A stretch of DNA of 64,000 nt from Bacteroidia bacterium (GCA_965216465.1 CBDCFW010000006.1:512001-576000); one strand, 5' to 3'; shown: positions 6,990 through 24,442, counted from the first letter of the stretch. Notes: generated from the sequence alone by a model not told the origin. Program-made: numbers and translations.

Positions 6990-9776
6990 CTATGCGGACA
7001 GCTCCTTAGGCAAGCTAAGATTTATGCTATGCCCCATCTCCTCATACTTTTCAATGTGCAATTCGCCCCCAAGTTTATCCAATAGCTCTTTGATCAAAAT
7101 TGTTCCAAGCCCCCCAGTCATGCGAACCATTCTGCTTTCGTCACTTCTCGATTTAAAATACTGATTTACTTCTTCCATTCCTTCAAAAGGTGAAGCAGCA
7201 TTAATGATTTTCAACTCAATGAAATGATCTTCTTCATCAGCTAGTAAGCTAATATTTGACGCCTGGCTGTGCTTAAGCTCGTTCTCCAATAAATTCTGCA
7301 AGATGGATCGAAGCATGTGTTCATCCGATTCGATTGAAAGCGTGGGATCAACTTCATTGGTGAAGCTTCCATTTTTCATTTTAGAATTAAAACGAAGTAA
7401 GTGTAAGACATCATCAAGCAGTTTTTTAATTCTAATTTTTTGCGGTTGTAGTCTTAAATCATTTCGCTGAGTCTTGGCCCAATCTAACGTGTTTTGTAAC
7501 GAAAGTTCAATATTGTCACTTGCATCGATCATGTGAGCAATGCTGGATTCTTGTTGTTCTGGATTGCCAACTGCGTTCCGTCCCACAATCGAAAGTGAGC
7601 GAATTGAGCCCATAATATCATGCGAAATCAGTCCAATAATCTTTTCACGAAACACCATCTGTTTTACAACTTGTTCTTGACTTGCTTCCAAACGTCCTGC
7701 ATAATCCTGCAGTGAATCGAATTGGTCTTGTAAATCTCCTTTTTGACGATCTACTTCTTCTTGAAGAGAAATTGCGCGTTTTCTGAGTTGAGCAAGACGC
7801 AATCTTACAAATAAGATGACAAGACCGATACCGCTTAGCCACATCCCTAATTTGGCCCAATTCGTCTGATACCAAAGCGGAAGCACATTCAACCCTACAA
7901 TCAATTCATCCGCAACACCCTCATATGTAATCAGCTGTATACTAAGCTTGTAAGAGCCATGATGAAGACTACGAAAAACCAAGTTTTCATTCTCTTCGAG
8001 ATAAACCCAAGGAGATGATTTGCCTAATCGGTATCTTATTTGGGCATTGTTATAATGATTAAAATAGAGGCCTCTATTTTCGAATCGAATAGGTTCTTCA
8101 TCCTGATCAAAATTTAATTGAGATTTATTTGCAACAACATCGTTCTTATGAGTAAAATGCAAGATCTGATTTGTATAGCGATGAACCTTGTTGGGATTAA
8201 AATAGGTTAACCCTTTTATAGTCGGCAAGATGATTAAATCTGAATTGACTAGTGTACCACAATCATTAGCTCCTCCATTAAATTCATTGGTTACTAACCC
8301 ACTTGATCGGTCAAAATAGGCTGCTCCAATATAGTCGGATTTATTTCGAATAAACTCATAAATCTGACTCATTTTAATGTTGAACAATCCATTGTTTGTG
8401 GTTACCCATAGGGTGTTTTGATAATCTTTTAAAAGTCTATGTGCATCGTTTATCTCTTTAAATTGGCTAACTGGAAGCTTAGTTATTTCACCTTTTGCTA
8501 ACACTAAAAGACCATTGTTTGCGGTAGCCAATAACAAGGTGTCTTCTCCCAGAATTAAAAGGTCGCGAATGGCATACTCAAAAGTCTTCAGGTAAGGTTC
8601 AATTTTCTCCCCTTTACAAAAATAAAGACCTCGATTTCCGGCTATCAATATTCCTCCATTCATAGTCCATAACCCTTTTATGTAATTCTTAAATCGCTCT
8701 TCGAGCACATAACTGGAATCTTCAAAAGGATTGGTCATTTTGCCCAGATAACCAATCCATAAATGGTTTTCCTCATCGACGATCATATTGCTTTTTGGGT
8801 GCCAGTTGTAATGAGGACGAATCAGCTTCCAAGACCAACCTTTCTTTTTATAAAGTCCACTGTCATTAACCATGTATAGCTCATCGTTGTATTTGATTTT
8901 TGCATACCCATTTAGATGATAGGTTGAGTCGAGCAGCTTTAATTCTCCATCAACGATTAGATGTGTTCGATGACTAAAAACTGTATCGTTATGAACAATT
9001 ACTGAGTAGTTTGACTGGGCTCTAAATTCTGGAGAATAAGTCGTTCTAAATGGTTGATAGTCTACAATTTGTATCCCTAAATTTTTATCGATTAAAACCA
9101 ATTTCCCAATGTTTTTTGCCAGCTGAATCGATCTAATGTTTTCAAATGGTACATCGGCTACAACCTGAGTTAGCTTCCAGCTGTTGCCGCTTTTTTGAAG
9201 CTGGTAAATGGTTCGATCATGAAACATTAGCGTTGGGGAGCTTGCGTTTATTTTAGGAAGAAAAAACAGCTTAGTTGAATCGTCAGTTTGAAAACTCTTT
9301 ATGTGCTTCTTTTGATTGTTTAGTTTATAGAAAATATTAGCACCTTCAATAAAACAGGTTAAACCGTTGTGGCTTACTGTTTTTGGTGTGCTGACTGGCT
9401 GAGGAGGAAGCGAATCTATTACCCCGTCTTGTAACTTGTAAAATTCGCCACGGTAAATGTTCCCAAATACATGATAGTTACCGTCGGCTTTTTCTATAAT
9501 GTATTCTCTATCATCTCGATCAACTATGTAAAAGTGACCCGTTCGATTAAGACCATTGACTGAATAAACCTTTTTGTTCTTGCCATCGTACCGAATGAGT
9601 TCATTCTGTTGGGTAAAAATCCATAAAAATCCATGTTTTCCGACATAGACATGTAAGGCAGATTGCGTATAAACTTCGAGTTGATCGATAGCCCGCCATT
9701 GGGCAGAAGAAGCGATGGAGGTTACAACTAGCCAGCAACACAACAATCCCTTTTTCAAGAAAGTTGAAATGCACAT
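6990..9776 (-). CDS. sensor histidine kinase with periplasmic beta-propeller/Y_Y_Y-like sensor region
   Basis: Signal peptide, LW(V/I)xT..GL propeller repeats, GLVTNEFNG, PLWYQT plus a TM helix, H-box SHDI, N-box NLLENELKH, GGLG G2 box. Confidence 0.85.
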   Translation of the reverse strand: MCISTFLKKGLLCCWLVVTSIASSAQWRAIDQLEVYTQSALHVYVGKHGFLWIFTQQNELIRYDGKNKKVYSVNGLNRTGHFYIVDRDDREYIIEKADGNYHVFGNIYRGEFYKLQDGVIDSLPPQPVSTPKTVSHNGLTCFIEGANIFYKLNNQKKHIKSFQTDDSTKLFFLPKINASSPTLMFHDRTIYQLQKSGNSWKLTQVVADVPFENIRSIQLAKNIGKLVLIDKNLGIQIVDYQPFRTTYSPEFRAQSNYSVIVHNDTVFSHRTHLIVDGELKLLDSTYHLNGYAKIKYNDELYMVNDSGLYKKKGWSWKLIRPHYNWHPKSNMIVDEENHLWIGYLGKMTNPFEDSSYVLEERFKNYIKGLWTMNGGILIAGNRGLYFCKGEKIEPYLKTFEYAIRDLLILGEDTLLLATANNGLLVLAKGEITKLPVSQFKEINDAHRLLKDYQNTLWVTTNNGLFNIKMSQIYEFIRNKSDYIGAAYFDRSSGLVTNEFNGGANDCGTLVNSDLIILPTIKGLTYFNPNKVHRYTNQILHFTHKNDVVANKSQLNFDQDEEPIRFENRGLYFNHYNNAQIRYRLGKSSPWVYLEENENLVFRSLHHGSYKLSIQLITYEGVADELIVGLNVLPLWYQTNWAKLGMWLSGIGLVILFVRLRLAQLRKRAISLQEEVDRQKGDLQDQFDSLQDYAGRLEASQEQVVKQMVFREKIIGLISHDIMGSIRSLSIVGRNAVGNPEQQESSIAHMIDASDNIELSLQNTLDWAKTQRNDLRLQPQKIRIKKLLDDVLHLLRFNSKMKNGSFTNEVDPTLSIESDEHMLRSILQNLLENELKHSQASNISLLADEEDHFIELKIINAASPFEGMEEVNQYFKSRSDESRMVRMTGGLGTILIKELLDKLGGELHIEKYEEMGHSINLSLPKELSA

Positions 9777-9817: not shown

Positions 9818-12130
9818 TTACTTTAAACCCAACTTTAACCCAAGAAAGATTGATCGTGGTTGTGCTGGTCCAAAAACAAAGTTGCTGTCTCTATTCTTGC
9901 CAATATCAAAGCTTGATTGATAAGCATTCAAGATGTTCTTCGCCCCTCCATAAATGTGAATAGCCGTTTTATTTGTGCTGCGATTAAGCCGATAGTTTAG
10001 CTTAAAACTGAGCTCTGAAAAGGAACGTGTAGTGACAATTTCATCGATTTGTTGATTCGGTGCTCCTGCAAAATGAGGAACTTTCATTTTACCTGTAAAT
10101 ACATAGCTTACAGTAGATCGCAGGCGATCATTTTTTAAGCTATTGATCGTTAGGCTGGCATAGCCATACTGATTTGGCGTTCGAATAAAGTCTGTAATTC
10201 CGGGTACATTATCAATATATTGAACTGGATTATCAAAACGGCTTGTTTGCAGCGTAAATCCAGATTCGAGTTGAGCTTTTTTGTTGTAGTTGGCCCGAGC
10301 TTCTAATGTTAAGCCTTGAACAGTTGCTCCTTGGCCATTTCGCTTTTCAAACCGCTCGCCGAACGCATCTTCTCCAATAGGCTGTAAAAAGAAAGCATCG
10401 TTTAGTCGGGTATAAAATCCATCCAAAGTAAAGCCAAATATGTACTTCTCGCTAGGCTTGTCGTAGCTGATCGAAGTGCTCCAACTTGAAGAAGTTTCGG
10501 GTCTTAAATCAGGCGAAAGTTGCACTCGCGATATGCCTCCCCCCGCAAAAGCGATATGCAAATCGGTGTCGAATGCTTGAGGAGCCCTGAACCCTGTGCC
10601 ATAGTTTAATCGAAAACGCAAATCACTTGTTGGTTTAAAAAGGATGGATGCTCGAGGGTTAGCTAATGTTCCATCTACAAAATTGTGTGCGTCGAATCGA
10701 ATACCCGACAACAGGGTTATTTTAGGGAATACCTTCCATTTACTTTGAATAAAACTTCCCGGATTTTTAGTGGTCTGATCTACAAGGTAGAGGTAGGCTG
10801 GAATTTCATCAAAGACATCATCGAGCAAGTATTCTACTCCTATGGTCAATATATTTTCTCCTGTAATAAATTTTTGGATGCGGTAATTAAGCTGCATTCC
10901 AACATTGTACGTTGATACGTTCGAGGTTCCATAGGGCGGATTCGCTAGATGTTGTTGAAGTCCTTCGTTACTATCGGGTAAAATTCCGGTGTAATGATCT
11001 CTTTTGGTATGCTGCCAAGCTAAATAACTGATAAACGAAAGTTTCTGATCTTTCGAATTGATTTGATAATCTGCATTGGCCATCCACACCTGGTGATTTC
11101 TCTCTTCAGATTGTTGAGTGAGATGGGCTGGTTTATCAACCATCTCACCTCCAAAACGGTACTCATTGAGGTTACTGATACTGAACTCCAATTTTTGATT
11201 CTCCTTAGGAAGAACAAACGCTGTTAAGCCTGCAGAGGTATTTTCAATTTTTGGAATTTCGGAGAAGTTATCGCTGTTGTGATCGTAAAAGTCTCGTTGA
11301 CGATGAGTAAGAAATAGCGTTACACCCATTCGGTCGTTTTTGGATACCAAAGAGGCATTTCCGAGCAACTGATTATCATTCGTTACTGCTCCAATTTGCT
11401 GGTAAGAGTAGTCAACATTATAGCCATTCTTAGTCGGGAGTTTAGTAATAACGTTCACCGTTCCTCCAATTGCACTAGACCCATAAAGCGAAGAACCACC
11501 ACCGCGAACCACTTCAATTCTTTCAATCATATTGGTTGGAAGTTGTTCCATTCCATAGAGCCCGGTGAGTGGACTAAATACCGGTCTTCCGTTTACTAGA
11601 ATCTGGGAGTAGCCTCCAGCTAAGCCGTTCATTCTCAACTGCGTATAGTTACAAGTTTGGCAATTATTTTCAACTCTTAATCCAGGTTGAAATTTGAGTC
11701 CCTCAGACAAATTACATGCCTGAACGTTTTCTAGATTTTGTGCTGTTACTGTGCTTACTAATATTGGAGAGTTATTACGGTGCTCCATCATTTTGGTTCC
11801 AGTAACAACAATTTGGTCGAGGTCTAGAATCTCCTGATCAATTGAAAAATCGAGTTGAGTATTCTGATTTTGATGAACCAGAACTTTGAGCGTTAGAGGT
11901 TTAAAACCAACATAAGATGCTGTGATATGATAAGCTCCAGCTTCGAGCTTATTGAGCTCATAGTTTCCTTGTTCATTTGAAAATGTGCCTATCGTTGTTG
12001 AATCAATGGTGATTGTAACATAGGCAGTTGCCTCTCCTTTAACCTTCACGTTACCGGAAATGGAACCTGACTGAGCCCAAGCTGTTGAGGCTAAGACCAA
12101 TGCGAGGAATATGGTAAGCGTTCTGAACAT
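9818..12130 (-). CDS. TonB-dependent outer-membrane receptor (metal-uptake type, CxxC in plug)
   Basis: N-terminal CarboxypepD_reg-like domain, VVTGT TonB box, IERIEVVRGGGSSLYGSSAIGGTVNVIT plug motif, NCQTC, GFRAPQ; ATG 12130 preferred. Confidence 0.92.
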   Translation of the reverse strand: MFRTLTIFLALVLASTAWAQSGSISGNVKVKGEATAYVTITIDSTTIGTFSNEQGNYELNKLEAGAYHITASYVGFKPLTLKVLVHQNQNTQLDFSIDQEILDLDQIVVTGTKMMEHRNNSPILVSTVTAQNLENVQACNLSEGLKFQPGLRVENNCQTCNYTQLRMNGLAGGYSQILVNGRPVFSPLTGLYGMEQLPTNMIERIEVVRGGGSSLYGSSAIGGTVNVITKLPTKNGYNVDYSYQQIGAVTNDNQLLGNASLVSKNDRMGVTLFLTHRQRDFYDHNSDNFSEIPKIENTSAGLTAFVLPKENQKLEFSISNLNEYRFGGEMVDKPAHLTQQSEERNHQVWMANADYQINSKDQKLSFISYLAWQHTKRDHYTGILPDSNEGLQQHLANPPYGTSNVSTYNVGMQLNYRIQKFITGENILTIGVEYLLDDVFDEIPAYLYLVDQTTKNPGSFIQSKWKVFPKITLLSGIRFDAHNFVDGTLANPRASILFKPTSDLRFRLNYGTGFRAPQAFDTDLHIAFAGGGISRVQLSPDLRPETSSSWSTSISYDKPSEKYIFGFTLDGFYTRLNDAFFLQPIGEDAFGERFEKRNGQGATVQGLTLEARANYNKKAQLESGFTLQTSRFDNPVQYIDNVPGITDFIRTPNQYGYASLTINSLKNDRLRSTVSYVFTGKMKVPHFAGAPNQQIDEIVTTRSFSELSFKLNYRLNRSTNKTAIHIYGGAKNILNAYQSSFDIGKNRDSNFVFGPAQPRSIFLGLKLGLK

Positions 12131-12152
12131 ACAATCAATCACTTTAGTATTG

Positions 12153-12183
12153 CAAAATTAAATTGTTAGGCTAATCTAACAAA
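12153..12183 (-). promoter_or_regulatory. TonB-receptor promoter with DtxR/MntR-type operator
   Basis: -7 TAATTTTG (12160-12153) and -33 TTTG (12183-12180), 19 bp apart. Palindrome TTGTTAG-GCTAAT-CTAACAA at 12163-12182 overlaps the spacer and the -33 element. Confidence 0.75.
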
Positions 12184-12226
12184 TATTTTTTGTTGTCTTG
12201 TAATTTCATTGCAATTTTGCTCGACC

Positions 12227-12880
12227 ATGCCATCGGTAACTAAGGAGAATTATCTGAAAGCGTTATACAATTTGCATCAGCGAAATGCAGAGATCTCGGT
12301 ATCTGATTTAGGCCAAGAGTTGGAAGTTAGTAAGCCGACAGTACACGACATGGTTAAACGCTTAGAATCTCAGGGATGGGTTGATTATCAACGATATAAG
12401 CCCTTAAAGTTGACCAAAGAAGGAGAAAAGATGGCGGCTTTGGTGATACGCAAGCATCGTCTGGCTGAAATGTTTTTGGTTCAAGTAATGGGATTTGGCT
12501 GGGAGGAAGTGCACAACATGGCCGAAGAAATTGAGCATTTAAAATCTGAAAAATTATTTGACCGCATGGATGAGATCATGGGATTTCCGTCGATTGATCC
12601 ACATGGTTCGCCCATTCCAGATAAGGATGGAAATTTGACTTCACCAGACTACGTTTTGTTAAACAGCATTAAGCCTGGGGAACGCGTAGTTTTTCGAGCT
12701 TTGAAGGACAGCTCGGTTGATTTCTTAGTGTACTTGAACAAAAAGGAATTACAATTGGGCACCACGATTCATGTACAAAGTATTGAGCCTTTTGATGGTA
12801 GCATGGTAGTGGACTATGGAGAGTACGAAGGTCAGGTATTGACCGAGCGTGTAACGAAGAAGTTGCTCGTTGAGGGTTAA
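12227..12880 (+). CDS. DtxR/MntR-family metal-dependent transcriptional repressor with FeoA-like domain
   Basis: ENYLKALY, wHTH, RKHRLAEMFL, EEIEH, DPHGSPIP motifs; ATG 12227. Confidence 0.93.
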   Translation: MPSVTKENYLKALYNLHQRNAEISVSDLGQELEVSKPTVHDMVKRLESQGWVDYQRYKPLKLTKEGEKMAALVIRKHRLAEMFLVQVMGFGWEEVHNMAEEIEHLKSEKLFDRMDEIMGFPSIDPHGSPIPDKDGNLTSPDYVLLNSIKPGERVVFRALKDSSVDFLVYLNKKELQLGTTIHVQSIEPFDGSMVVDYGEYEGQVLTERVTKKLLVEG

Positions 12881-12918
12881 TCTCTAAGATTAACATACAT
12901 AAAAGCCAAAGTCAGGAC

Positions 12919-12952
12919 AAAAAAAATCCATGAGTCATTCAACTCATGGATT
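12919..12952 (-). terminator. intrinsic terminator between convergent genes
   Basis: AATCCATGAGT-CATTCA-ACTCATGGATT 11-bp stem with an A8 run on the left. Confidence 0.75.
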
Positions 12953-12975
12953 CAGATTAAACACTAAAGCCAATC

Positions 12976-13338
12976 TTACTCTTTAAGACCATCGGTCACC
13001 CACGCTTCGAGTGTCGCGATGTCAGCGTCTGAAAGCTTGTTGCCATTTTTAGGCATAGGAGAAACTCCTGCTTCATGTTTTACTGCTTTAATCATCTTAC
13101 CCCATTCAGCAAATGCTTTTGCATCGGCGTAGCCTTCAAGGCTTCCCACTTGCGAGCCTGCATTGTGGCATCCGCTAAAAGCACAGCTTCCGTTTAGGAT
13201 TGCTGCTGCATCATCAGTGTAAGTAGTAAAAGTTTCAACTGGATCCGGTTCTGGTTCTGGATCATCATCTTTACATGCGTTAAATAATAATAGTCCTGAA
13301 GCCAATAGGAGTACGGAGTAAAGTTTGATATTTTTCAT
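12976..13338 (-). CDS. c-type cytochrome-like lipoprotein with CX4CH motif
   Basis: Lipobox FNAC, acidic Pro linker, CAFSGCH, MP distal-ligand motif, LS..DI..LEAW C-terminal helix. Confidence 0.8.
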   Translation of the reverse strand: MKNIKLYSVLLLASGLLLFNACKDDDPEPEPDPVETFTTYTDDAAAILNGSCAFSGCHNAGSQVGSLEGYADAKAFAEWGKMIKAVKHEAGVSPMPKNGNKLSDADIATLEAWVTDGLKE

Positions 13339-13355
13339 ATTAGATTGAATTTAGA

Positions 13356-13394
13356 CGAATATATGTATATACACTTAAAAATGTATGTATATAC
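13356..13394 (-). promoter_or_regulatory. promoter with tandem TATGTATATAC operator boxes
   Basis: TATGTATATAC at 13362-13372 and 13384-13394 (22-bp period), overlapping a TATATTCG -7-like element at 13363-13356. Confidence 0.55.
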
Positions 13395-13555
13395 CTGTAT
13401 TTTTTGAATAGGTGGAGGAAAAATGACATAACATGCCACTCCTTAAAGTATCGACCCCTAAGCAAGAACCAGTGTTTCTGCCGATTCTAAGTAAAAATGA
13501 AGATTAGGGCAAGGATAATTTAGCATATATGAATCTTTTAATACCTTAGCAGAAT

Positions 13556-13913
13556 ATGAAGAGCTTATTTTTACTTGCAGTACTATTATTTACGCTACCA
13601 AATTTTTTCGAAAGCACAAACGGTAAATGATATTCCTATCTCAGAAATTGATGTTGAATATGTTCAAATCGTAGGAACCGCTAAACTTCTCAGTAATAAG
13701 GTTACCATTCAAATAGATTTTGGACAAGAAAACAAAGTGTTTAAAACTAAAGACACACAAGTTAGGGACAAAGATGGCCGATTAATGGTCTTTTATTCTA
13801 TGATCGATGCCTTAAACTTCATGAGTAAGAATGGCTATGATTTTGTTGAAGCTTATGCCGTGACGATTGGAAATCAAAACGTCTATCACTATTTGCTGAA
13901 AAAGAGAGAATGA
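13556..13913 (+). pseudogene. secreted hypothetical protein interrupted by a +1 frameshift in a T6 run
   Basis: ATG 13556 reads MKSLFLLAVLLFTLPNF and stops at 13630. Removing one T at 13603-13608 joins it to SKAQTVNDIP...HYLLKKRE. Confidence 0.7.
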
Positions 13914-13920
13914 TCTTCTA

Positions 13921-14080
13921 GTCCAACATCTGGAGCGGGGAGGTTAAAGGTTTCGTAACATGCTAAGCCGACAGCACTGCGTACTGGGTCTTTTTTTGTG
14001 CCTTTTGCCTTTCAAGGCTGCACCTTCTAGTGTAATCCAAGAAGGATTGGCTCCCTTCGGTCGCCCATCCCTGGGGGCCA
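13921..14080 (+). repeat. isolated degenerate copy of the ~125-bp tRNA-associated repeat unit
   Basis: AAGCCG-ACAGCACTGCGTACTGGGTC-TTTTTTTGTGCC...GGATTGGCTCCCTTCGGTCGCCCATCC-CTGGGGG, same orientation as the array at 17488-18060. Confidence 0.85.
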
Positions 14081-14101
14081 CTAAATTTTGATGATTTACA
14101 G

Positions 14102-17100
14102 TTAGTATGCAACTACTTTACAGAACAGGAATGTTCCCTCAGCAAGTTCAATTCTGAGAATGTATAACTCACTTGCAGCATTTATTTGAAATGAATACCT
14201 GACAACCCCATCCAAACGATGATCCAAGATTTGTTTACCATCAGTTGAAAATAAAGAAATACCCACCATTTCGTGGCCATCTCCGAGATTGATATTGACC
14301 AAGCCGTCTGTTGGATTGGGATAGACAAATTCACATACATTGGTCTGGTCCACTTTAATAAAATTAATGGGAACACATGCAGAGGTGTCAACACAGCCCT
14401 CCGACTTTAATTCGACCGCATAGGTGCCATTAGTTTTTGGTGAAAATGTACTGTTGATCTGGTCAAAAATACCTGCAGAGTCACAATAGATCCACTGGAA
14501 ACTATCAGCCTTCGCAAGTGAGGTAATTACCCCAGCATCTATGGAGACAGCTGTGTCAATATGAATTATTTGCAAATCAATCACTACAATACTGTCGCAG
14601 CCAGTATGGCCTGTCAAGGTATCTTGGTAGACCCCTGATTCTGTATATATTTTTCCAGTGGGACTAAAATACTCAGCACAATGTTTCTCTTGTACGTTTG
14701 AAACAGTACTATGATACAAGGTTAAATCCAGTGTAACTAGACTGTCACACCCTTTCGTATTAGATAAGGTGTAAATAGCAGTTTGGTTGGAAGAATAGTA
14801 GGTGGCCTGATCAATCCAAACAAATGAGTCACAAGCTGTTTGTATGTCTATCCCAGTTGTGGAGCTGTTTAATACCAGATCAAGAGTATGTACAGAATCA
14901 CACCCATTTGAGTTAACAAAAGTTTTATTATAAGTTCCGCTGGAGGTGTATGTTGTACCGTCCCATATAAATTGGTCACATGCGGTTAGATTGGTTGTGT
15001 CTACAGTGGGGGAATTGAGGGTCAAGTTTAACGTGTGAACACTGTCACAACCCAATACATTGACCAGTGTTTTGGAATAGGGTCCAGAGGCGTAATAGGT
15101 GGTTCCTAGCCAGGTGAAACTGTCACATGACTCCACAGAACTTGAACCAAAGCTGGATGGATTGATAGTTAGGTTCAGTGTATGCAAGCTATCACAACCA
15201 GCCATATTCTTATATACTTTTGAATATGAACCGTTCACCTTATAGGTGCTCCCATCCCAAGAAAAACTGTCACACGATGTCACATTGTGGGTTCCAAAAT
15301 TGGAATGGTCAATGGTAAGGTCAAGGGTATGAACACTGTCACAACCCACAGCATTAATATATGTATTCTGATAAAACCCACTGGACGAATAAACGGTGCT
15401 ATCCCAAATGAAACTGTCACATGCCCATGCCTGGCTCGTATCTGTTGAGCTGTATAGAATGGTTAATTCCAAGGTGTGTACACTGTCACAGCCACTGGAA
15501 CTGGTAAAGGTCCTGTCAAATGACCCGCTGGTTGAATATGTATGATTATCCCATACAAAGCTGTCACAAGCAACAATGCTATCTGAACCTGAGATCCCTA
15601 TAGTCAAATCCAACCTTATCACACTGTCACAGCCATGGACGTCTGGGAGTGTGAAGGTAGCGGAATCAATGCTGGAGTAATACATCACTCCATCAATCCA
15701 CAGAAATGAATCGCAAGTCTGTATCTCATCCGTCCAATAGCTCGGTTCACACAAATACATGGACTGAATATAAACCCCGCTGCTCGCCCATTGCAATGAT
15801 GCACTCCCTAAGCCTGGATCAAAATCTGGATTCTTTCCATAACCTCCAGTGGTATATAATCTGTGGTCTTCCCTATACCTGATGTTAAATCCATGGGATT
15901 CATTTATTCCAAAACCCATTCCATTAAGTAAATTTCCGGCTGTATCAAACCTAGCAACGAAGGTAGCCCCTCCAGCACCTGAAATGGTCAGGGTCTTAGA
16001 AGTGTCTGGATTAATATCAAAAGCGTTTTGATAATAACCTATGACAATGGGTTGCCCTAAAGAATCCAATGCCAAATCTTCTCCTCGCAAGGTGCCACAG
16101 TTACCACAAGTTTTTTGCAGCAGGTGTGCCCAGCCAAACTCCCCATTCCCATTTAGTTTCATCAATAAAGCTCCACCATGGCAAGGTGAATCACAGGATA
16201 GAAAAAATGAATCTTGACCAGGATCATAGTCAAATCCACCTAAACCGGTGCCTGATAAGTAAATATCGCCATAGCTATTGGAGGCCACCGCATGAAGTTT
16301 GCCTCCTCCTTCAATACTGGTGACCCAGATGATATTGCCGGCTGAATCAAGTTTGAAGACAAGGTGATTGGTGGCTTGGAAAAGATCGGTCCCAGAAGAA
16401 GGATCAAAGTCCCAAGTTCCGTAGAATGATGCTATTCCTATAATTTGCCCAGAATCATTTAACCACGCATCGTTGATTGCTACTTCATATGAATGAGAAC
16501 TCGATGAAACATTAGAACCAATGACTTTGGCAAAATTAAAATCTCCATTTCGACTAAGCTTAACTAGCACGAATCCCCCAGTTGTTCCAAAAGACATATT
16601 TGAGGTGGATGCATTGGGATTGAGATTTGTGTTATCGGTAACTTTTATTGGAAGGTATAGGTTTGCAGAATCATCGAGGATAATATTGTTAATACGTTGT
16701 TTTCGACCTGCACTGGATGTGAACTGTTTTACCCAAACGAATCCCCCCGCAGAATCAAGCTTTAGAACAAAAATTTTGTCATTTGGAACCCCAGGGGTAA
16801 GGTAGTGACTGTTCGGACCGGGATCAAAATCCACAGAATCCCATGAATAAAAAGTTCCAACAACATAGACATACCCTGAGTCGTCAATCGTGATATCAGT
16901 CCCAATATCCTCCTGTCCATCACCAAATGAATATCCCCAAAGTAGATTTTCATTTGAATCATATTTCGCAACGAATATGTCTGAATAAACACTTGGATAT
17001 GCACCGGAGGCCGTAACAATATGCGTTCCGGGACCTGGGTCGAGGTCTAAATCGCCTACAAAATACCCCGTGACATATATATTTCTATTTGAATCTGTTA

Positions 17101-17227
17101 CCAGGCTAGTTCCAGCGGTTCCTTTTACATTACCTTTTAGGCCAAAGGCTTGTTCAAATATTTGGCCATTGCTGGTCCATGACATGCAAATTATTGCAAT
17201 ACAAAATATGAATCTGAATAGTGTCAC
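14102..17227 (-). CDS. T9SS type-A cargo surface protein: SBBP/DFDPG beta-propeller plus 8 Cys-paired GCDS repeats
   Basis: Signal peptide, D(L/F)DPG repeats, eight CDSFxW...GCDSxxxLxL-type units, C-terminal VYPNPT sorting domain. Confidence 0.88.
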   Translation of the reverse strand: MTLFRFIFCIAIICMSWTSNGQIFEQAFGLKGNVKGTAGTSLVTDSNRNIYVTGYFVGDLDLDPGPGTHIVTASGAYPSVYSDIFVAKYDSNENLLWGYSFGDGQEDIGTDITIDDSGYVYVVGTFYSWDSVDFDPGPNSHYLTPGVPNDKIFVLKLDSAGGFVWVKQFTSSAGRKQRINNIILDDSANLYLPIKVTDNTNLNPNASTSNMSFGTTGGFVLVKLSRNGDFNFAKVIGSNVSSSSHSYEVAINDAWLNDSGQIIGIASFYGTWDFDPSSGTDLFQATNHLVFKLDSAGNIIWVTSIEGGGKLHAVASNSYGDIYLSGTGLGGFDYDPGQDSFFLSCDSPCHGGALLMKLNGNGEFGWAHLLQKTCGNCGTLRGEDLALDSLGQPIVIGYYQNAFDINPDTSKTLTISGAGGATFVARFDTAGNLLNGMGFGINESHGFNIRYREDHRLYTTGGYGKNPDFDPGLGSASLQWASSGVYIQSMYLCEPSYWTDEIQTCDSFLWIDGVMYYSSIDSATFTLPDVHGCDSVIRLDLTIGISGSDSIVACDSFVWDNHTYSTSGSFDRTFTSSSGCDSVHTLELTILYSSTDTSQAWACDSFIWDSTVYSSSGFYQNTYINAVGCDSVHTLDLTIDHSNFGTHNVTSCDSFSWDGSTYKVNGSYSKVYKNMAGCDSLHTLNLTINPSSFGSSSVESCDSFTWLGTTYYASGPYSKTLVNVLGCDSVHTLNLTLNSPTVDTTNLTACDQFIWDGTTYTSSGTYNKTFVNSNGCDSVHTLDLVLNSSTTGIDIQTACDSFVWIDQATYYSSNQTAIYTLSNTKGCDSLVTLDLTLYHSTVSNVQEKHCAEYFSPTGKIYTESGVYQDTLTGHTGCDSIVVIDLQIIHIDTAVSIDAGVITSLAKADSFQWIYCDSAGIFDQINSTFSPKTNGTYAVELKSEGCVDTSACVPINFIKVDQTNVCEFVYPNPTDGLVNINLGDGHEMVGISLFSTDGKQILDHRLDGVVRYSFQINAASELYILRIELAEGTFLFCKVVAY

Positions 17228-17472
17228 ATGGAGAGGTTAGGGCCTTAAATATAACAATATTCTATCAAATTGTGCTTCATTATGTATATCGACAAAACAA
17301 AGTGAGCGACCTACAGTAAATTTAATAGAGAAATTTCATTAATCTACAATGAAAAATGCCAATCATTGTCGAGAGAACAACTTGATGCTGAAACACTGAT
17401 AGTGGTGGAATGACAATTCGGGACGTTGGCGAAGCCAGGGCTTGAATTATGCCAACTCAAGGTCTCCTGCTA

Positions 17473-18060
17473 GGGGTCCCAACATATAAAGCTGAAAGCA
17501 CTGCGTGCTATGTCTTTTTTTGTGCCCTTGGCCTTTCAAGGCTACGCTTTGGGTGTCAGATCAGGAAGGATTGGCTCCCTACGGTCGCCCATCCGGGGGT
17601 TAATGGGGGTCCTAACATCTAAAGCCGCACTGCGTGCTGGGTCTTTTTTTGTACCCATGGCCCTTCAAAGCGAAGCTTTGGGGGTTGTTCAGGATGGATT
17701 GGCTCCCTACGGTCGCCCATCCGGGGGGGGGTGCTTCATATTCAAAGCCGAGCACGTTGTGCTTTGCCTTTTTTTGTGCCCTTGGCCCTTCAAAGCGAAG
17801 CTTTGGGGGTTGTTCAGGATGGATTGGCTCCCTACGGTCGCCCATCCGGGGGGGGGGGGTGCTTCATATTCAAAGCCGAGCACGTTGTGCTTTGCCTTTT
17901 TTTGTGCCCTTGGCCCTTCAAAGCGAAGCTTTGGGGGTTGTTCAGGATGGATTGGCTCCCTACGGTCGCCCATCCGGGGGGGGGTGCTTCATATTCAAAG
18001 CCGAGCACGTTGTGCTTTGCCTTTTTTTGTGCCCTTGGCCCTTCAAAGCGAAGCTTTGGG
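17473..18060 (+). repeat. tandem array of ~125-bp hairpin-rich units (4 full plus 1 partial)
   Basis: Units start at about 17488, 17621, 17744, 17872 and 17997. The last three are identical except for poly-G length; the first two are diverged. Confidence 0.95.
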
Positions 18061-18078
18061 GCCGGGGCACAAAAAAAG
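18021..18078. repeat. 58-bp imperfect palindrome centred on GCGAAGC
   Basis: CTTTTTTTGTGCCC-TT-GGCCC-TT-CAAAGC-GAA-GCTTTG-GGGCC-GG-GGCACAAAAAAAG. Confidence 0.85.
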
Positions 18079-18100
18079 CCGGTCATTCCTGACCGGCTTT
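18071..18100 (-). terminator. tRNA-Val terminator
   Basis: Minus strand AAAGCCGGTCA-GGAA-TGACCGGC-TTTTTTT. Confidence 0.85.
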
Positions 18101-18104
18101 GATG

Positions 18105-18179
18105 TGGGCGATACTGGATTCGAACCAGTGACCCCCTGCTTGTAAGGCAGGTGCTCTAAACCAACTGAGCTAATCGCCC
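18105..18179 (-). tRNA. tRNA-Val (anticodon TAC), CCA not encoded
   Basis: GGGCGATTAGCTCAGTTGGTTTAGAGCACCTGCCTTACAAGCAGGGGGTCACTGGTTCGAATCCAGTATCGCCCA folds into a canonical cloverleaf. Confidence 0.97.
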
Positions 18180-18221
18180 TCTTTTGCTCATTTTTAAGAA
18201 CGTATCTCGTTTTGAGGGCTG

Positions 18222-18251
18222 CAAATATAATAAGCCATTTTATTCTGCAAA
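18222..18251 (-). promoter_or_regulatory. Bacteroidota housekeeping promoter of tRNA-Val
   Basis: -7 TATATTTG (18229-18222) and -33 TTTG (18251-18248). Confidence 0.7.
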
Positions 18252-18343
18252 ATAAAAAATACACAATTAGACACCTTAATGTGTATTGTTAATTCGTTTA
18301 CCTATTAAGCCGCACTTAAAATCGCTTTTTTTGTCTGCCTAAC

Positions 18344-20809
18344 TTGAAAAAATTCATAAAAATATCGCTGGTTATCCTAACCATCGTTGCCCTCGCAATA
18401 GGAGGAATAGGTTTCTATTTCTATAAAAATATTAAACCCATCCTCGTTCAAGAAATAAATAAAACACTAGCCGTTGAAGTTAATGTTGCCGATATCTCCA
18501 TTTCCGGCATTAAAGACTTTCCTAAACTTGGTGTTAAATTCTCTGACGTAAAAATCAACGAGAGCACCGCTTTTTACAACACCAACTTGCTCGAAGCTAA
18601 AGAACTTAACCTTTTTGTTGACGTGCTCAAACTGTACAAAGGAGTTTATGTTATCGACGCCGTTACACTTCGTGATGGATATATCAGCTTGTCCGATATG
18701 AAAAACTCGAGCAACTATGACATCTTTAAACCTTCTGAAAGCACAGACTCTTCGGCAGTTAGTTTCGAAATTAAAGATCTTTCACTCGTAAACTGCAAAC
18801 TGACTTACTCACATACCCCGTCAAATTTCGATTGTAAAGCTTATGCCCCTAAAGCCAGTATTAAACTCAAATACCTTGACAACGCTACCGATCTAAAAAT
18901 AAAAACAGGCTTAGATAACATGCATCTCAACCTCGATGGGGAAGCCTTCATCAATAATCAAAATCTTAAGATCAACACAGGCATTGTTGTTAAGACCGAT
19001 AAAGAACAAGTGCTCATAGCACAAAGTGATCTGATAATAGAAGATGTTCCCCTCCGCACCAAAGGAAGTGTAAGCTATGGCGAGGCATCACTTATTGATT
19101 TCACATTCGAGGGTGTTAAAACCAATGTGCAATCACTGATCAGTGTACTTCCAGAAAGTATTGCTTCTTCTTTCGAACACATTAACCTCGATGGGGAAAC
19201 GGCAATTAACGGCTTTTTCAAAGGAAGAATGACCGATAATTATAATCCCTCTTTCGGATTTGATTACGCCCTTAGCAATACCAACTTGTCCATTCCAAGC
19301 CAGAACATTTCATTAAAAGGAATACAAGCAAAAGGACTACTCGAAATTCCAGATATCAGCAACCTCAACAGTGCTAAAGCAACCTGTAATCTGAGTAGAG
19401 CTCATAGCGACAATAACTCCATTCGAGGGAGCTTAGACGTTAAGAACTTTAATCGTCCAACCATATCGTGGGAAGGAAGCTCAAGCCTTGATGCAAAGTT
19501 CATCTTCGCATTAGCTGATAGCTCAAACTTTAACGCGAAAAGTGGACGCATCGAAACTGAAGGAATGCTTCGTTTTACCTATGATGTAGAAGCAGAAACC
19601 ATGGTTCCCAATTCCCTTCAATTTAAAGGTCGGGTGATGGGACAGAATATTTCAGGACAATTAGTTGAGCCAAGCCTTGATGTAAAAGCAGTCAATTTTG
19701 ATATCAGTGCAAGCAATGAAAGAATGGTTATTAACTCAGCTACTGTTGATTACAACAATACCAAAGCGAAGTTAATTGGCTATATAGAAAACTACCCTTC
19801 TTTATTTGAATCAAAGCCGAACGCAAAACTTATAGGCGACCTCGATATTAACAATCTCGTTGTAAATGAACTATTTACAACTTCGGAGTCAACAGAATCA
19901 GCATCATCTTCATCGCAATATATTTCGCCAATTGCTCTCGAATTAAAAGCCAATCTTACGGAGTTTAAATACAACGAATTTGTTGCACAATCGATGACCG
20001 GAATGCTGCTCTCGAACCGAACGAGTATCAGAATGCCTAACTGTGAAATTGAAGCACTTGATGGGCACACAACCGCATCAATAACACTAAAAAACTGGGG
20101 TGAGAACTACTTATTAGATATCAATTCTGACCTGGACCAAATCGACATCACTCAGTTGTTTAAACAGTTTAACAATTTTGAACAAAACGAGATTACCCAC
20201 GAGCATATCAGCGGTAGACTTACGGGTAAGATTTTAACCAAGGTGATTCTTGATCCACAATACGAGCCAATCCTTCCGAAACTATACGCCAAAGCAAATA
20301 TCACTATAGAAAATGGCCAACTTAAAGGTTACGACCCGCTTAAAGAATTATCTTCTTTTGTAAATATCGCAGACCTAGAAGACGTTCGTTTTAAGACACT
20401 CAGCAACACCATCGAAATTTTCGACGAGACTATTTTCATTCCTAAAATGCGGATAGAAAATAATGCCCTCAACCTCGGAATAGAAGGCACCCACACCTTC
20501 GAAAATTACATGACTTACAGTATGGAACTGAGTGTAGCTGAACTCCTAGCATCTAAAGCCAACTGGATTGCCAAGAAAAAAGAACGCCGAATTGAAAAGA
20601 ATATTGATGGAGGTTTAACCGCATATATCCTCATGGAAGGAACTCCTGACGATCTGAAAATTAAATACGACCGAGCCACGGTGAAAGAAAAAGTGCAAGA
20701 CGAAATCAAAAAGGAGAAGACCAATTTCATAAAAGCTCTTAAAGGTGAAGCAACCTTAGACGATGATGAGGTTGAATCGAAAGACTACGATAACGTCTGG
20801 GACGAATAG
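18344..20809 (+). CDS. AsmA-family protein
   Basis: N-terminal TM anchor, FP.L...F, long beta-rich body, C-terminal F.TL.N.I.I...I.IP.M.I.NNA...G.HTF.N typical of Bacteroidota AsmA-like proteins. Confidence 0.75.
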   Translation: MKKFIKISLVILTIVALAIGGIGFYFYKNIKPILVQEINKTLAVEVNVADISISGIKDFPKLGVKFSDVKINESTAFYNTNLLEAKELNLFVDVLKLYKGVYVIDAVTLRDGYISLSDMKNSSNYDIFKPSESTDSSAVSFEIKDLSLVNCKLTYSHTPSNFDCKAYAPKASIKLKYLDNATDLKIKTGLDNMHLNLDGEAFINNQNLKINTGIVVKTDKEQVLIAQSDLIIEDVPLRTKGSVSYGEASLIDFTFEGVKTNVQSLISVLPESIASSFEHINLDGETAINGFFKGRMTDNYNPSFGFDYALSNTNLSIPSQNISLKGIQAKGLLEIPDISNLNSAKATCNLSRAHSDNNSIRGSLDVKNFNRPTISWEGSSSLDAKFIFALADSSNFNAKSGRIETEGMLRFTYDVEAETMVPNSLQFKGRVMGQNISGQLVEPSLDVKAVNFDISASNERMVINSATVDYNNTKAKLIGYIENYPSLFESKPNAKLIGDLDINNLVVNELFTTSESTESASSSSQYISPIALELKANLTEFKYNEFVAQSMTGMLLSNRTSIRMPNCEIEALDGHTTASITLKNWGENYLLDINSDLDQIDITQLFKQFNNFEQNEITHEHISGRLTGKILTKVILDPQYEPILPKLYAKANITIENGQLKGYDPLKELSSFVNIADLEDVRFKTLSNTIEIFDETIFIPKMRIENNALNLGIEGTHTFENYMTYSMELSVAELLASKANWIAKKKERRIEKNIDGGLTAYILMEGTPDDLKIKYDRATVKEKVQDEIKKEKTNFIKALKGEATLDDDEVESKDYDNVWDE

Positions 20810-23767: not shown

Positions 23768-24442
23768 TTGATGATACTATCAGATCTTGTACTTCGAAAT
23801 GAACTTCCAGCAGCATTAAAATTTGCACTGCTTGGGCTTATTTTCTTGGTTGGAGTGCTCTATGTTTTGGTTCCAAATTGGTTGGTATCGATTCGTTTAT
23901 TGGCTTATTTGCCCATTCAGAGGTTTTCATGGCAAAGTGAAAAATATACCATTAACAACCTGTTTCGTATAAGCTCCATGCTTAGTATCAGCATGGTTTA
24001 CGCCATTTTTGTTTACGCTTATATTTCTTCAGAAAAACTTTTTTTGGTGGAAGACGGCACTTTAAACTTCTTAATTATCTGGTTGGGAGTGGTTATTCTT
24101 ACCGTGACTAAATACTTCCTAAATGCTTATTATTTTGGTCTGCATCAGCACAGCGAACTTGGTAATCTAGTTGTTGATTATCAATACAGTATAAACCAAT
24201 TCTTTGCTCTAATTTTAGGGGTACTGCTTTTGGTAGATGTCTTCTATTTCAAGCTAGATAGTAACTTATTCATTGCAGAGGTAATCTTAGTAATCACGCT
24301 GTTTCTCGTTAAATTGTTCGGAGTGATTTTAATGCTTCAAAACAATTTTAACTATCCAATTCTTAGTCTTTTTGTTTATCTTTGCACCTTCGAAATCGTA
24401 CCTATACTAATTTTAGCAAAGGTGCTTTTCGTAAACAGCTAA
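23768..24442 (+). CDS. DUF4271-family membrane protein
   Basis: Multi-TM protein with C-terminal YLCTFEIVP; lies upstream of hemD as is usual in Bacteroidota. Confidence 0.75.
   Translation: MMILSDLVLRNELPAALKFALLGLIFLVGVLYVLVPNWLVSIRLLAYLPIQRFSWQSEKYTINNLFRISSMLSISMVYAIFVYAYISSEKLFLVEDGTLNFLIIWLGVVILTVTKYFLNAYYFGLHQHSELGNLVVDYQYSINQFFALILGVLLLVDVFYFKLDSNLFIAEVILVITLFLVKLFGVILMLQNNFNYPILSLFVYLCTFEIVPILILAKVLFVNS

Follow-up and report, generated by a model that had tools for sequence, protein, structure and literature searches.

The array of tandem non-coding units, each of about 125 bases, that lies behind a tRNA-Val gene in the 64-kb stretch of Bacteroidia DNA analysed here (the window) is best explained as an rtT-like tRNA-distal mosaic repeat, part of a Bacteroidia family and turning over at its tRNA end, a reading to which we give about half of our confidence. 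Its units share a common anatomy and are linked to tRNA genes with constant strand and spacing; relatives in Alistipes carry copies of tRNA 3' ends, identity between units declines along the array, and the unit begins at the same T-loop junction as the repeats behind an E. coli tRNA gene. In the literature searched, we found no description of such a putative Bacteroidia repeat family behind tRNA genes.

The tRNA-Val gene (anticodon TAC, CCA not encoded) occupies positions 18104-18179 on the minus strand (ARAGORN; 75.5 bits with the Rfam tRNA model) and is followed by a terminator-like hairpin of 11 pairs and a T run, found at 18075-18100 on the same strand by a hairpin scan. The array starts 43 nt past the end of the tRNA gene and the first conserved hairpin core lies at 131 nt. 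The original prediction of five units of about 125 bp after the terminator was correct as to the array, but the nearest unit is partial, so that the array, at 17472-18061, consists of four complete units plus a partial one of 77 nt; Tandem Repeats Finder reports a single array (17505-18061, period 125, 4.4 copies, 90% matches). The partial unit, U5 (17985-18061), contains only the first two hairpins, is fused to the tRNA terminator and is identical to U3 and U4 over 77 of 77 bases, and because it lacks the conserved hairpin there are five cores rather than six. U4 (17857-17984) matches U3 (17732-17856) at 125/125 positions and differs from it only in having a poly-G of 9 instead of 12, so the expectation that the three proximal units are identical except in poly-G length holds, with U5 only partial. 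Beyond these lie U2 (17605-17731; 110/121, 91%, versus U3) and U1 (17472-17604; 101/119, 85%, versus U3), which forms the distal end of the contiguous array. The predicted sixth copy in the same orientation is present as an isolated full unit, U0 (13948-14080; 92/125, 74%, versus U3 and 84% versus U1), beyond a T9SS surface-protein gene. All six are annotated on the plus strand, with three hairpins per full unit and poly-G runs of 5(+5), 9, 12 and 9 after the hairpin. As predicted, identity falls with distance from the tRNA, in steps of 100, 91, 85-86 and 73-74%, and adjacent units are the closest pairs (U0-U1 84%, U1-U2 87%, U2-U3 91%). This window gradient, and the degeneracy of the distal units in two Alistipes arrays (L004 and L002), agree with a polarised array whose youngest copies adjoin the tRNA.

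Each full unit conserves a 21-nt hairpin core (TGGGCGACCGNAGGGAGCCAA when read along the tRNA's strand), which lies within a pseudo T-arm and has AATCC after it, a junction found in 5/5 core-bearing window units. The pseudo T-arm retains the T-stem but has, in place of the middle of the T-loop, an 18-nt hairpin that contains tandem G-A mismatches and closes in a GNA triloop. Pattern matching and a covariance model place its five copies on the minus strand at 17949-17975, 17821-17847, 17696-17722, 17568-17594 and 14044-14070. The 27-nt hairpin core has five exact or near-exact matches in 64 kb against none expected from 100 shuffles; the covariance model, R1, recovers those same five window copies and no more, at 54-56 bits, and its only further hits, weak ones (E about 5), coincide with the T-arm regions of real tRNAs. 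The core itself forms an imperfect inverted repeat, predicted to be more stable on the tRNA-sense strand in 5/5 folded variants, and it is so nearly invariant that covariation cannot test the hairpin itself. Similarity of the window units to the 3' end of tRNA-Val is at background level in the acceptor part (6-7 of 14), nothing is shared past AATCCA, and whole-unit alignment of a window unit to the tRNA is not significant. The terminal 16 nt of tRNA-Val likewise have no copy at the window unit positions, two 3-mismatch matches lying within genes. For the window, the pseudo-tRNA reading thus depends on the relatives in Alistipes. Nor are the inner units simple copies of the present tRNA flank, since in both the window and Alistipes they lack the terminator module of the tRNA-proximal segment. 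In the window that segment includes a 21-nt inverted repeat (18021-18041 and 18058-18078, 86% complementary), centred on the second U5 hairpin and involving the terminator hairpin.

Where else does the module occur? An exact 19-base core scan of the contigs of 185,579 species genomes, with the family gathered through exact-core matches only, gave nine loci, of which seven are in MAGs of Alistipes, a distant gut member of the Bacteroidia that belongs to a different order. At all seven the first core lies on the tRNA's strand, 153-171 nt 3' of the end of a tRNA-Ser or tRNA-Val gene, bearing out the predicted tie between array and tRNA 3' flank. The Alistipes arrays contain one to four units each, 16 in total and all on the tRNA-sense strand, and a search of 198,863 bases with R1 found no further copy; across the Bacteroidia, all 21 copies seen belong to eight tRNA loci, with the isolated U0 about 4 kb from its tRNA. 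In 14/16 Alistipes units the core is followed by a copy of the local tRNA's own 3' end, starting in the T-loop, like att-type direct repeats. The T-stem and acceptor 3' strand of the adjacent tRNA match better than those of other-isotype tRNAs in 14/16 units, with two ties and none worse, the mean match being 10.1 of 14 for the adjacent tRNA versus 8.1 for other isotypes. Pairing in the upstream hairpin of the Alistipes units is kept through two-sided changes at 2/4 pairs, and in 5/7 loci a 19-27-nt inverted repeat, in five different sequences, begins at the first base past the tRNA. Two related species, L002 and L006, differ by a one-unit register shift beside the tRNA, the first unit of L006 matching the second of L002 best (90%, against 84% collinear); assigning the gain or loss to one end of the array is a matter of interpretation. 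Within one genome, different tRNA loci share homologous unit bodies and a rare variant of the hairpin, and a hairpin variant with an insert of about 72 nt adjoins two different tRNA-Ser 3' ends, which favours movement between loci over local duplication alone.

The nearest known architecture is in E. coli. Repeats behind tyrT have been known since the late 1970s, and to our knowledge have no accepted origin or function. In E. coli K-12 a 178-bp unit is repeated 3.1 times directly after tyrV, where rttR and tpr are annotated, and each unit starts with AATCCTTCCCCCACCACCA, which is the stretch of tRNA-Tyr between the T-loop and the 3' end. A passage in PMC3318445, citing Bosl and Kersten 1991, states that a single repeat unit in the tyrT operon encodes rttR, whose role is described as unknown in a passage of bioRxiv 10.1101/2024.07.17.603846. 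As in E. coli, the units in the window and at 7/7 Alistipes loci are in tandem directly 3' of a tRNA gene and in its orientation, they contain GNA-loop hairpins, and by their AATCC junction they would likewise begin at the last three T-loop bases, with the tRNA 3' end recognisable in the Alistipes units. The likeness is architectural rather than one of sequence; the Rfam rtT model has no match, with E up to 1, in 12000-20000. In E. coli the units reproduce the real tRNA flank exactly and no terminator precedes them, whereas in the window a terminator intervenes and the copied tRNA 3' end can no longer be recognised. Unlike those of E. coli, the Bacteroidia units have in common a conserved pseudo T-arm hairpin, found at many tRNA loci and in two orders.

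How might such a family be maintained? On the tRNA's strand, a unit comprises AATCC with what would be a degenerate tRNA 3' end, from the position of the last three T-loop bases; one or two hairpins of terminator type, akin to the trailer of the tRNA itself; and the conserved pseudo T-arm. Unequal crossing-over or slipped replication would add new units beside the tRNA and keep them alike, acting between neighbouring units and also between true and pseudo T-arms, which are palindromic and have AATCC in common. Older units would then drift outwards and decay. Selection may preserve the invariant hairpin for its stability and its action on the tRNA-sense strand, where it could mark the points at which read-through tRNA transcripts are terminated or processed, or serve as the binding site of a conserved protein. 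Co-transcription of the array with tRNA-Val and processing to a stable RNA are conjectural, given the strong terminator-like hairpin between them. U0 is probably an old member of the array, split off when the 3.4-kb T9SS segment arrived, and may now serve as a terminator between convergent genes.

The gene between U0 and U1 (14102-17227, minus strand) encodes an SBBP-repeat surface protein (Pfam SBBP) with a weak T9SS sorting tail, Por_Secre_tail scoring below the cut-off. A promoter-like region upstream of it was read by eye against the consensus TAnnTTTG, of which a strict scan found no box there. On the other side of U0 is a small secreted-protein gene (13556-13913, plus strand), whose signal peptide (from 13556) and body (to 13913) are in different frames, the shift lying in an A3T6 run; the predicted frameshifted gene before the most degenerate copy is thus present and ends 35 nt before U0. 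U0 therefore sits between the convergent ends of these two genes, and its first hairpin and T7 run are read as the terminator of the small gene, a site that the hairpin scan did not list.

The original prediction suggested that these repeats may form an integron-like, tRNA-anchored platform, with the T9SS gene as a cassette captured between two sites. The segment does fit exactly between the U1 tail and the U0 head, the stepwise similarity of U0, U1, U2 and U3 is compatible with U0 having once adjoined the array, and close orthologues of the T9SS protein are missing (its best non-self homologue is 35% identical), whereas relatives of a housekeeping protein reach 83-87%. Like an integron attC array, this one is polar, anchored at one end, and has one gene between two repeat copies. 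We nevertheless regard capture as very unlikely. The attC consensus is RYYYAAC ... GTTRRRY, and no such pair of inverse cores occurs on either strand in 13900-14110 or 17440-18110; there is no intI, and 5/6 units abut without a gene between them, whereas integron cassettes bring one gene, mostly promoterless, to each site. As the prediction itself had stated, no recombinase is encoded in the window: recombinase, transposase, integrase and RAYT domains are absent from its 44 ORFs, and the proposed co-occurrence with such genes found no support around the Alistipes arrays either, where no recombinase or transposase domain was found in 37 scanned of 103 listed long ORFs. The T9SS segment has no target duplication or boundary repeats at its edges, its gene has a G+C of 0.40-0.44 like that of its flanks, a cassette would have no need of the promoter-like region (consensus read by eye), and SBBP surface proteins vary fast anyway. 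The suggested survey for copies that lie at tRNA 3' ends and flank genes succeeded in its first half (7/7) and failed in its second, none of the seven Alistipes arrays enclosing a gene. With these hallmarks missing, the picture of sites empty near the tRNA and filled farther away rests on a single gene.

The broader view of the units as recombination sites or insertion scars has partial support: it is favoured by the tRNA tie, the polarity, the register shift and the att-like 3' copies in Alistipes, and is opposed by the lack of recombinase, attC site, target duplication and cargo. In its most specific form the units would be bare att-type sites, a conserved recombinase-binding hairpin and a tRNA 3' end from the T-loop on, inserted serially as miniature integrative elements by a T-loop-specific integrase encoded elsewhere. 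The att sites of tRNA genes fall into sublocation classes, and as in CIME-type remnants of tRNA-targeting elements with tandem accretion, the Alistipes copies are direct repeats that run from the T-loop to the tRNA end, and the newest units of the window array lie next to the tRNA. The imperfect inverted repeat of the core and the recurrence of homologous bodies and of a rare hairpin variant at different loci of one genome would also fit. We consider this unlikely, since the units are gene-less, only 81-191 bp long and carry a hairpin in the T-loop's place, no integrase was found in the window or in the 37 scanned ORFs around the seven arrays, and the units have no match in 50,697 phage and 72,556 plasmid records. 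Moreover, the window units have no tRNA-Val 3' end, so that insertion at the T-loop would destroy the tRNA, and the identical U3 to U5 are more simply local duplicates. Mobilisation as a REP/BIME- or MITE-like element by a transposase, whether HUH (RAYT or IS200-type) or of another kind, that favours terminator hairpins behind tRNA genes is distinctly unlikely. The REP/BIME elements of enterobacteria and pseudomonads consist of short hairpins arranged as extragenic mosaics close to the 3' ends of genes, vary in copy number and have proposed terminator-like roles; the array is likewise an extragenic mosaic of short palindromic units, long inverted repeats border its tRNA-adjoining segment, U0 lies between convergent genes as REPs do, and tandem REP-like elements in a Clostridia MAG, away from any tRNA, contain a near-identical 18-nt hairpin core. 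REPs, however, have hundreds of dispersed copies linked to RAYT genes, whereas every Bacteroidia copy seen belongs to a tRNA locus. Within the 64 kb of this genome that was covered, copies stand at two places and neither a RAYT or transposase domain nor a target duplication, as expected of MITEs, was seen; the local tRNA 3' copies would be left unexplained.

Could the units instead be small-RNA genes, arranged in tandem on the plus strand so as to run antisense to the tRNA and terminated in each case by the first hairpin with its T7 run? A terminator-like hairpin with a T run is present on that strand in U1, U3, U4 and U5, and a box resembling the promoter consensus lies just upstream of the unit start in Alistipes. 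We find this very improbable, as the TAnnTTTG scan of both strands gave no box within any window unit, the conserved hairpin is predicted to fold better on the opposite strand in all five variants, and Rfam matched only tRNA in the window region and over the seven Alistipes loci. An assembly artefact, with the proximal units being collapsed or expanded repeats, is extremely unlikely: U3, U4 and U5 are the same except for homopolymer length, a homopolymer frame shift lies nearby and the L006 contig breaks inside its array, but the diverged U0, U1 and U2 and the independent arrays in three other assemblies show that the structure is real, leaving only copy number in doubt. A more speculative and rather improbable idea is that a trans-acting recombinase which recognises tRNA T-arms takes the pseudo T-arm and tRNA-3'-end modules as decoys or secondary attachment sites, in which case many Bacteroidia tRNA flanks would be polar landing pads where gene-less mini-elements and occasional cargo such as the T9SS gene pile up, and E. 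coli rtT would be a fossil of the same process.

The rtT-like mosaic repeat, as we prefer to read it, would be a second tRNA-distal repeat family, unrelated in sequence to that of E. coli but with the T-loop junction in common. Several tRNA genes per genome carry it, its invariant hairpin, common to two Bacteroidia orders, makes a testable element, and the shared junction and the recurrence suggest a general process at the palindromic T-arm of tRNA genes. Such arrays are a source of assembly breaks and of strain variation beside tRNA genes in gut and environmental Bacteroidia, and should recombination turn out to take place at the units, these would constitute a new kind of gene-accretion platform.

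What kind of element is the repeat array behind the window's tRNA-Val gene? It is best filed among tRNA-distal repeats of the rtT kind (rtT being the Rfam family for the E. coli tyrT repeat RNA), and not as an integron-like system. The tRNA-Val(TAC) gene (18104-18179, minus strand), found by ARAGORN and Rfam, is trailed by a terminator-like hairpin of 11 pairs (18100-18075, minus strand), and Tandem Repeats Finder reports a single array at 17505-18061 with a period of 125 and 4.4 copies. With the unit borders set in this analysis, it divides into U1 (17472-17604), U2 (17605-17731), U3 (17732-17856), U4 (17857-17984) and U5 (17985-18061); a further unit, U0 (13948-14080), has the same orientation. 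U3, U4 and U5 are the same in sequence, poly-G length apart (12, 9), identity to U3 falls stepwise through U2 (91%) and U1 (85-86%) to U0 (73-74%), and across pairwise comparisons of the window units the highest similarity is always between neighbors. The tRNA-anchored, polarised array of the original prediction is thus real; the sixth, same-orientation copy also exists, although the unit nearest the tRNA is a partial one of 77 nt. Since the array, U0, the enclosed gene and a frame-shifted gene were all found, the initial observation stands with small corrections.

Read on the plus strand, every full unit holds three hairpins: a small one with T7 behind it, a second one, and a third with poly-G behind it. 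The third hairpin's 27-nt core does not vary among the five full units, giving five matches against 0 expected, and neither pattern search nor the covariance model found further core copies in the 64 kb; a regex match at 23870-23946 was spurious, without covariance-model support. Whole-unit MFE z-scores do not rise above shuffles on either strand, and the window units contain no TAnnTTTG boxes. The poly-G runs at unit ends (17714-17722, 9; 17839-17850, 12; 17967-17975, 9) are likely hypervariable and an assembly risk.

The proposed check of whether copies cluster at tRNA 3' ends came out positive in three Alistipes genomes. An exact scan with the hairpin core (19 specified bases), in a collection searched without the window's own genome, returned nine loci, seven of them from three Alistipes metagenome-assembled genomes (MAGs). 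ARAGORN places a tRNA gene beside all seven (five tRNA-Ser, two tRNA-Val(TAC)), and in each the core follows the tRNA, an arrangement that the window shares, and reads TGGGCGACCGNAGGGAGCCAA on the tRNA-sense strand; the first core starts 153-171 nt past the tRNA end in Alistipes and 131 nt past it in the window. By a relaxed pattern used alongside a covariance model trained on 17 units, the Alistipes loci hold 16 units, 1 to 4 per array and with array periods of 81-191 nt, and no other copies occur in 198,863 bases. The remaining two loci were set aside as not tRNA-linked: L005 matches in part, lies in G+C-rich DNA and is 3.7 kb away from rRNA-operon tRNAs, and L007, in a Clostridia MAG, is a pair of tandem REP-like hairpins (8698-8778) with an 18-nt GNA-loop hairpin nearly identical to that of the Bacteroidia core, other flanks and no tRNA, lying between what we take, from names read off the sequence, to be aminotransferase-like and carA-like genes. 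Judged by TyrRS similarity, the window belongs to an uncultured Bacteroidia bacterium of a different order from Alistipes, with Salibacteraceae and Flavobacteriales as its closest named relatives at about 70%. Rfam reports only tRNA, both at a permissive E-value across 12000-20000 and at gathering score in the seven Alistipes loci, and full-text literature searches turned up no account of repeats like these in Bacteroidetes.

The core is flanked on the tRNA's strand by GG(G)A at its 5' side and TCC(C) at its 3' side, and is therefore placed exactly as a T-arm whose loop center has been swapped for an 18-nt hairpin, which has tandem G-A mismatches and a GNA triloop; in all five variants folded, the core hairpin is stabler on the tRNA-sense than on the opposite strand. 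Whole-unit local alignment to the tRNA against shuffles was significant for the Alistipes locus L004 alone (z 6.3) and not for the window (z -0.8), and was superseded by a position-locked comparison. Past the Alistipes core, the sequence repeats the neighboring tRNA's T-stem and acceptor 3' strand, at times with its first trailer bases, and in 14 of 16 units the unit's own tRNA matches better than tRNAs of the other isotype, with two ties. The window units retain only AATCCA of the tRNA 3' end, the remainder scoring at background; their second hairpin is placed as the tRNA's terminator is, and the module of their first hairpin is related, in inverted form, to the tRNA-Val terminator. Five of the seven Alistipes loci carry a 19-27-nt inverted repeat that starts at the first post-tRNA base, encloses the tRNA's terminator hairpins and closes about 90-100 nt on, right before the first pseudo T-arm (L008 9726-9871, L009 5469-5612, L002 9839-9980, L006 340-479, L001 9847-9972); the arms are 89-100% complementary, with a different sequence at each locus. 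A short hairpin upstream of the Alistipes core keeps its pairing despite both-side changes at two of four pairs, which are probably a single event.

The sole gene of the U0-U1 interval (14102-17227, minus strand), whose SBBP-repeat product bears a weak T9SS tail, was proposed as the cargo of an integron-like, tRNA-anchored cassette platform. It fits exactly between the U1 tail and the U0 head, and it lacks a close orthologue, no homologue of its product exceeding 35% identity against 83-87% for TyrRS, so capture of this gene alone may have occurred. As a system, however, cassette capture is highly improbable. The lack of a recombinase in the window was confirmed by a domain search (no recombinase or transposase domain in 44 ORFs), and the 37 ORFs scanned among the 103 listed around the Alistipes arrays have no such domain either. 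Pattern search gave no attC-type cores, the T9SS segment has no boundary repeats, no second tRNA-Val 3' end occurs at the unit positions, and the gene's G+C is ordinary. Two window units and one Alistipes array had no blastn match in phage and plasmid collections, and none of the seven Alistipes arrays encloses a gene.

Ahead of U0, the most degenerate copy, lies the frame-shifted gene that had been noted, a small secreted-protein gene (13556-13913, plus strand) ending 35 nt before it. Its signal peptide is in one frame and its body in another, the shift falling within an A3T6 run, which may mark either a real pseudogene or a homopolymer error in sequencing. The T9SS gene itself has six internal repeats spaced by about 147 nt (14718-15635). 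Two more large genes (28176-30932 and 37461-40340), each with a clear T9SS sorting tail, have no repeat at their flanks, and short, terminator-like palindromes of about 25-30 nt, unrelated to the tRNA units, are dispersed at 2160, 4590, 9044, 21792, 41018 and 58586 (families D4, D6 and D17).

How these repeats spread and what the hairpin does are both inferred. Units would be gained and homogenised at the tRNA-adjacent end, which fits the window's gradient of identity, the greater degeneracy of distal units in L004 and L002, and a one-unit register shift at a locus that is orthologous between two Alistipes species. Straightforward copying of the sequence next to the tRNA is disfavored, because the terminator module trailing the tRNA is absent from inner units, and because a rare hairpin variant adjoins two different tRNA-Ser 3' ends in one Alistipes MAG, with an insert of about 72 nt at the same split point in the pseudo T-arm module (L003 9982-10029, L004 9712-9759).

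This organization is reminiscent of the 178-bp repeats of the E. coli tyrT locus, which were checked on the K-12 sequence. There, 3.1 copies of a 178-bp unit directly follow tyrV, every unit starts with AATCCTTCCCCCACCACCA, which is the tRNA-Tyr 3' end beginning at the final three bases of the T-loop, and rttR and tpr are annotated within the repeats. A passage of one paper has a single tyrT operon repeat unit encode rttR (PMC3318445), and a passage of a 2024 preprint calls the mode of action of rttR unknown (bioRxiv 10.1101/2024.07.17.603846). The junction falls at the identical T-loop position in the E. coli tyrT/tyrV repeats and the Bacteroidia units, but the two share no sequence homology and the Rfam rtT model has no match. 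The array is best filed as new within the rtT-kind repeats, set apart by a pseudo T-arm hairpin that is conserved and shared across Bacteroidia.
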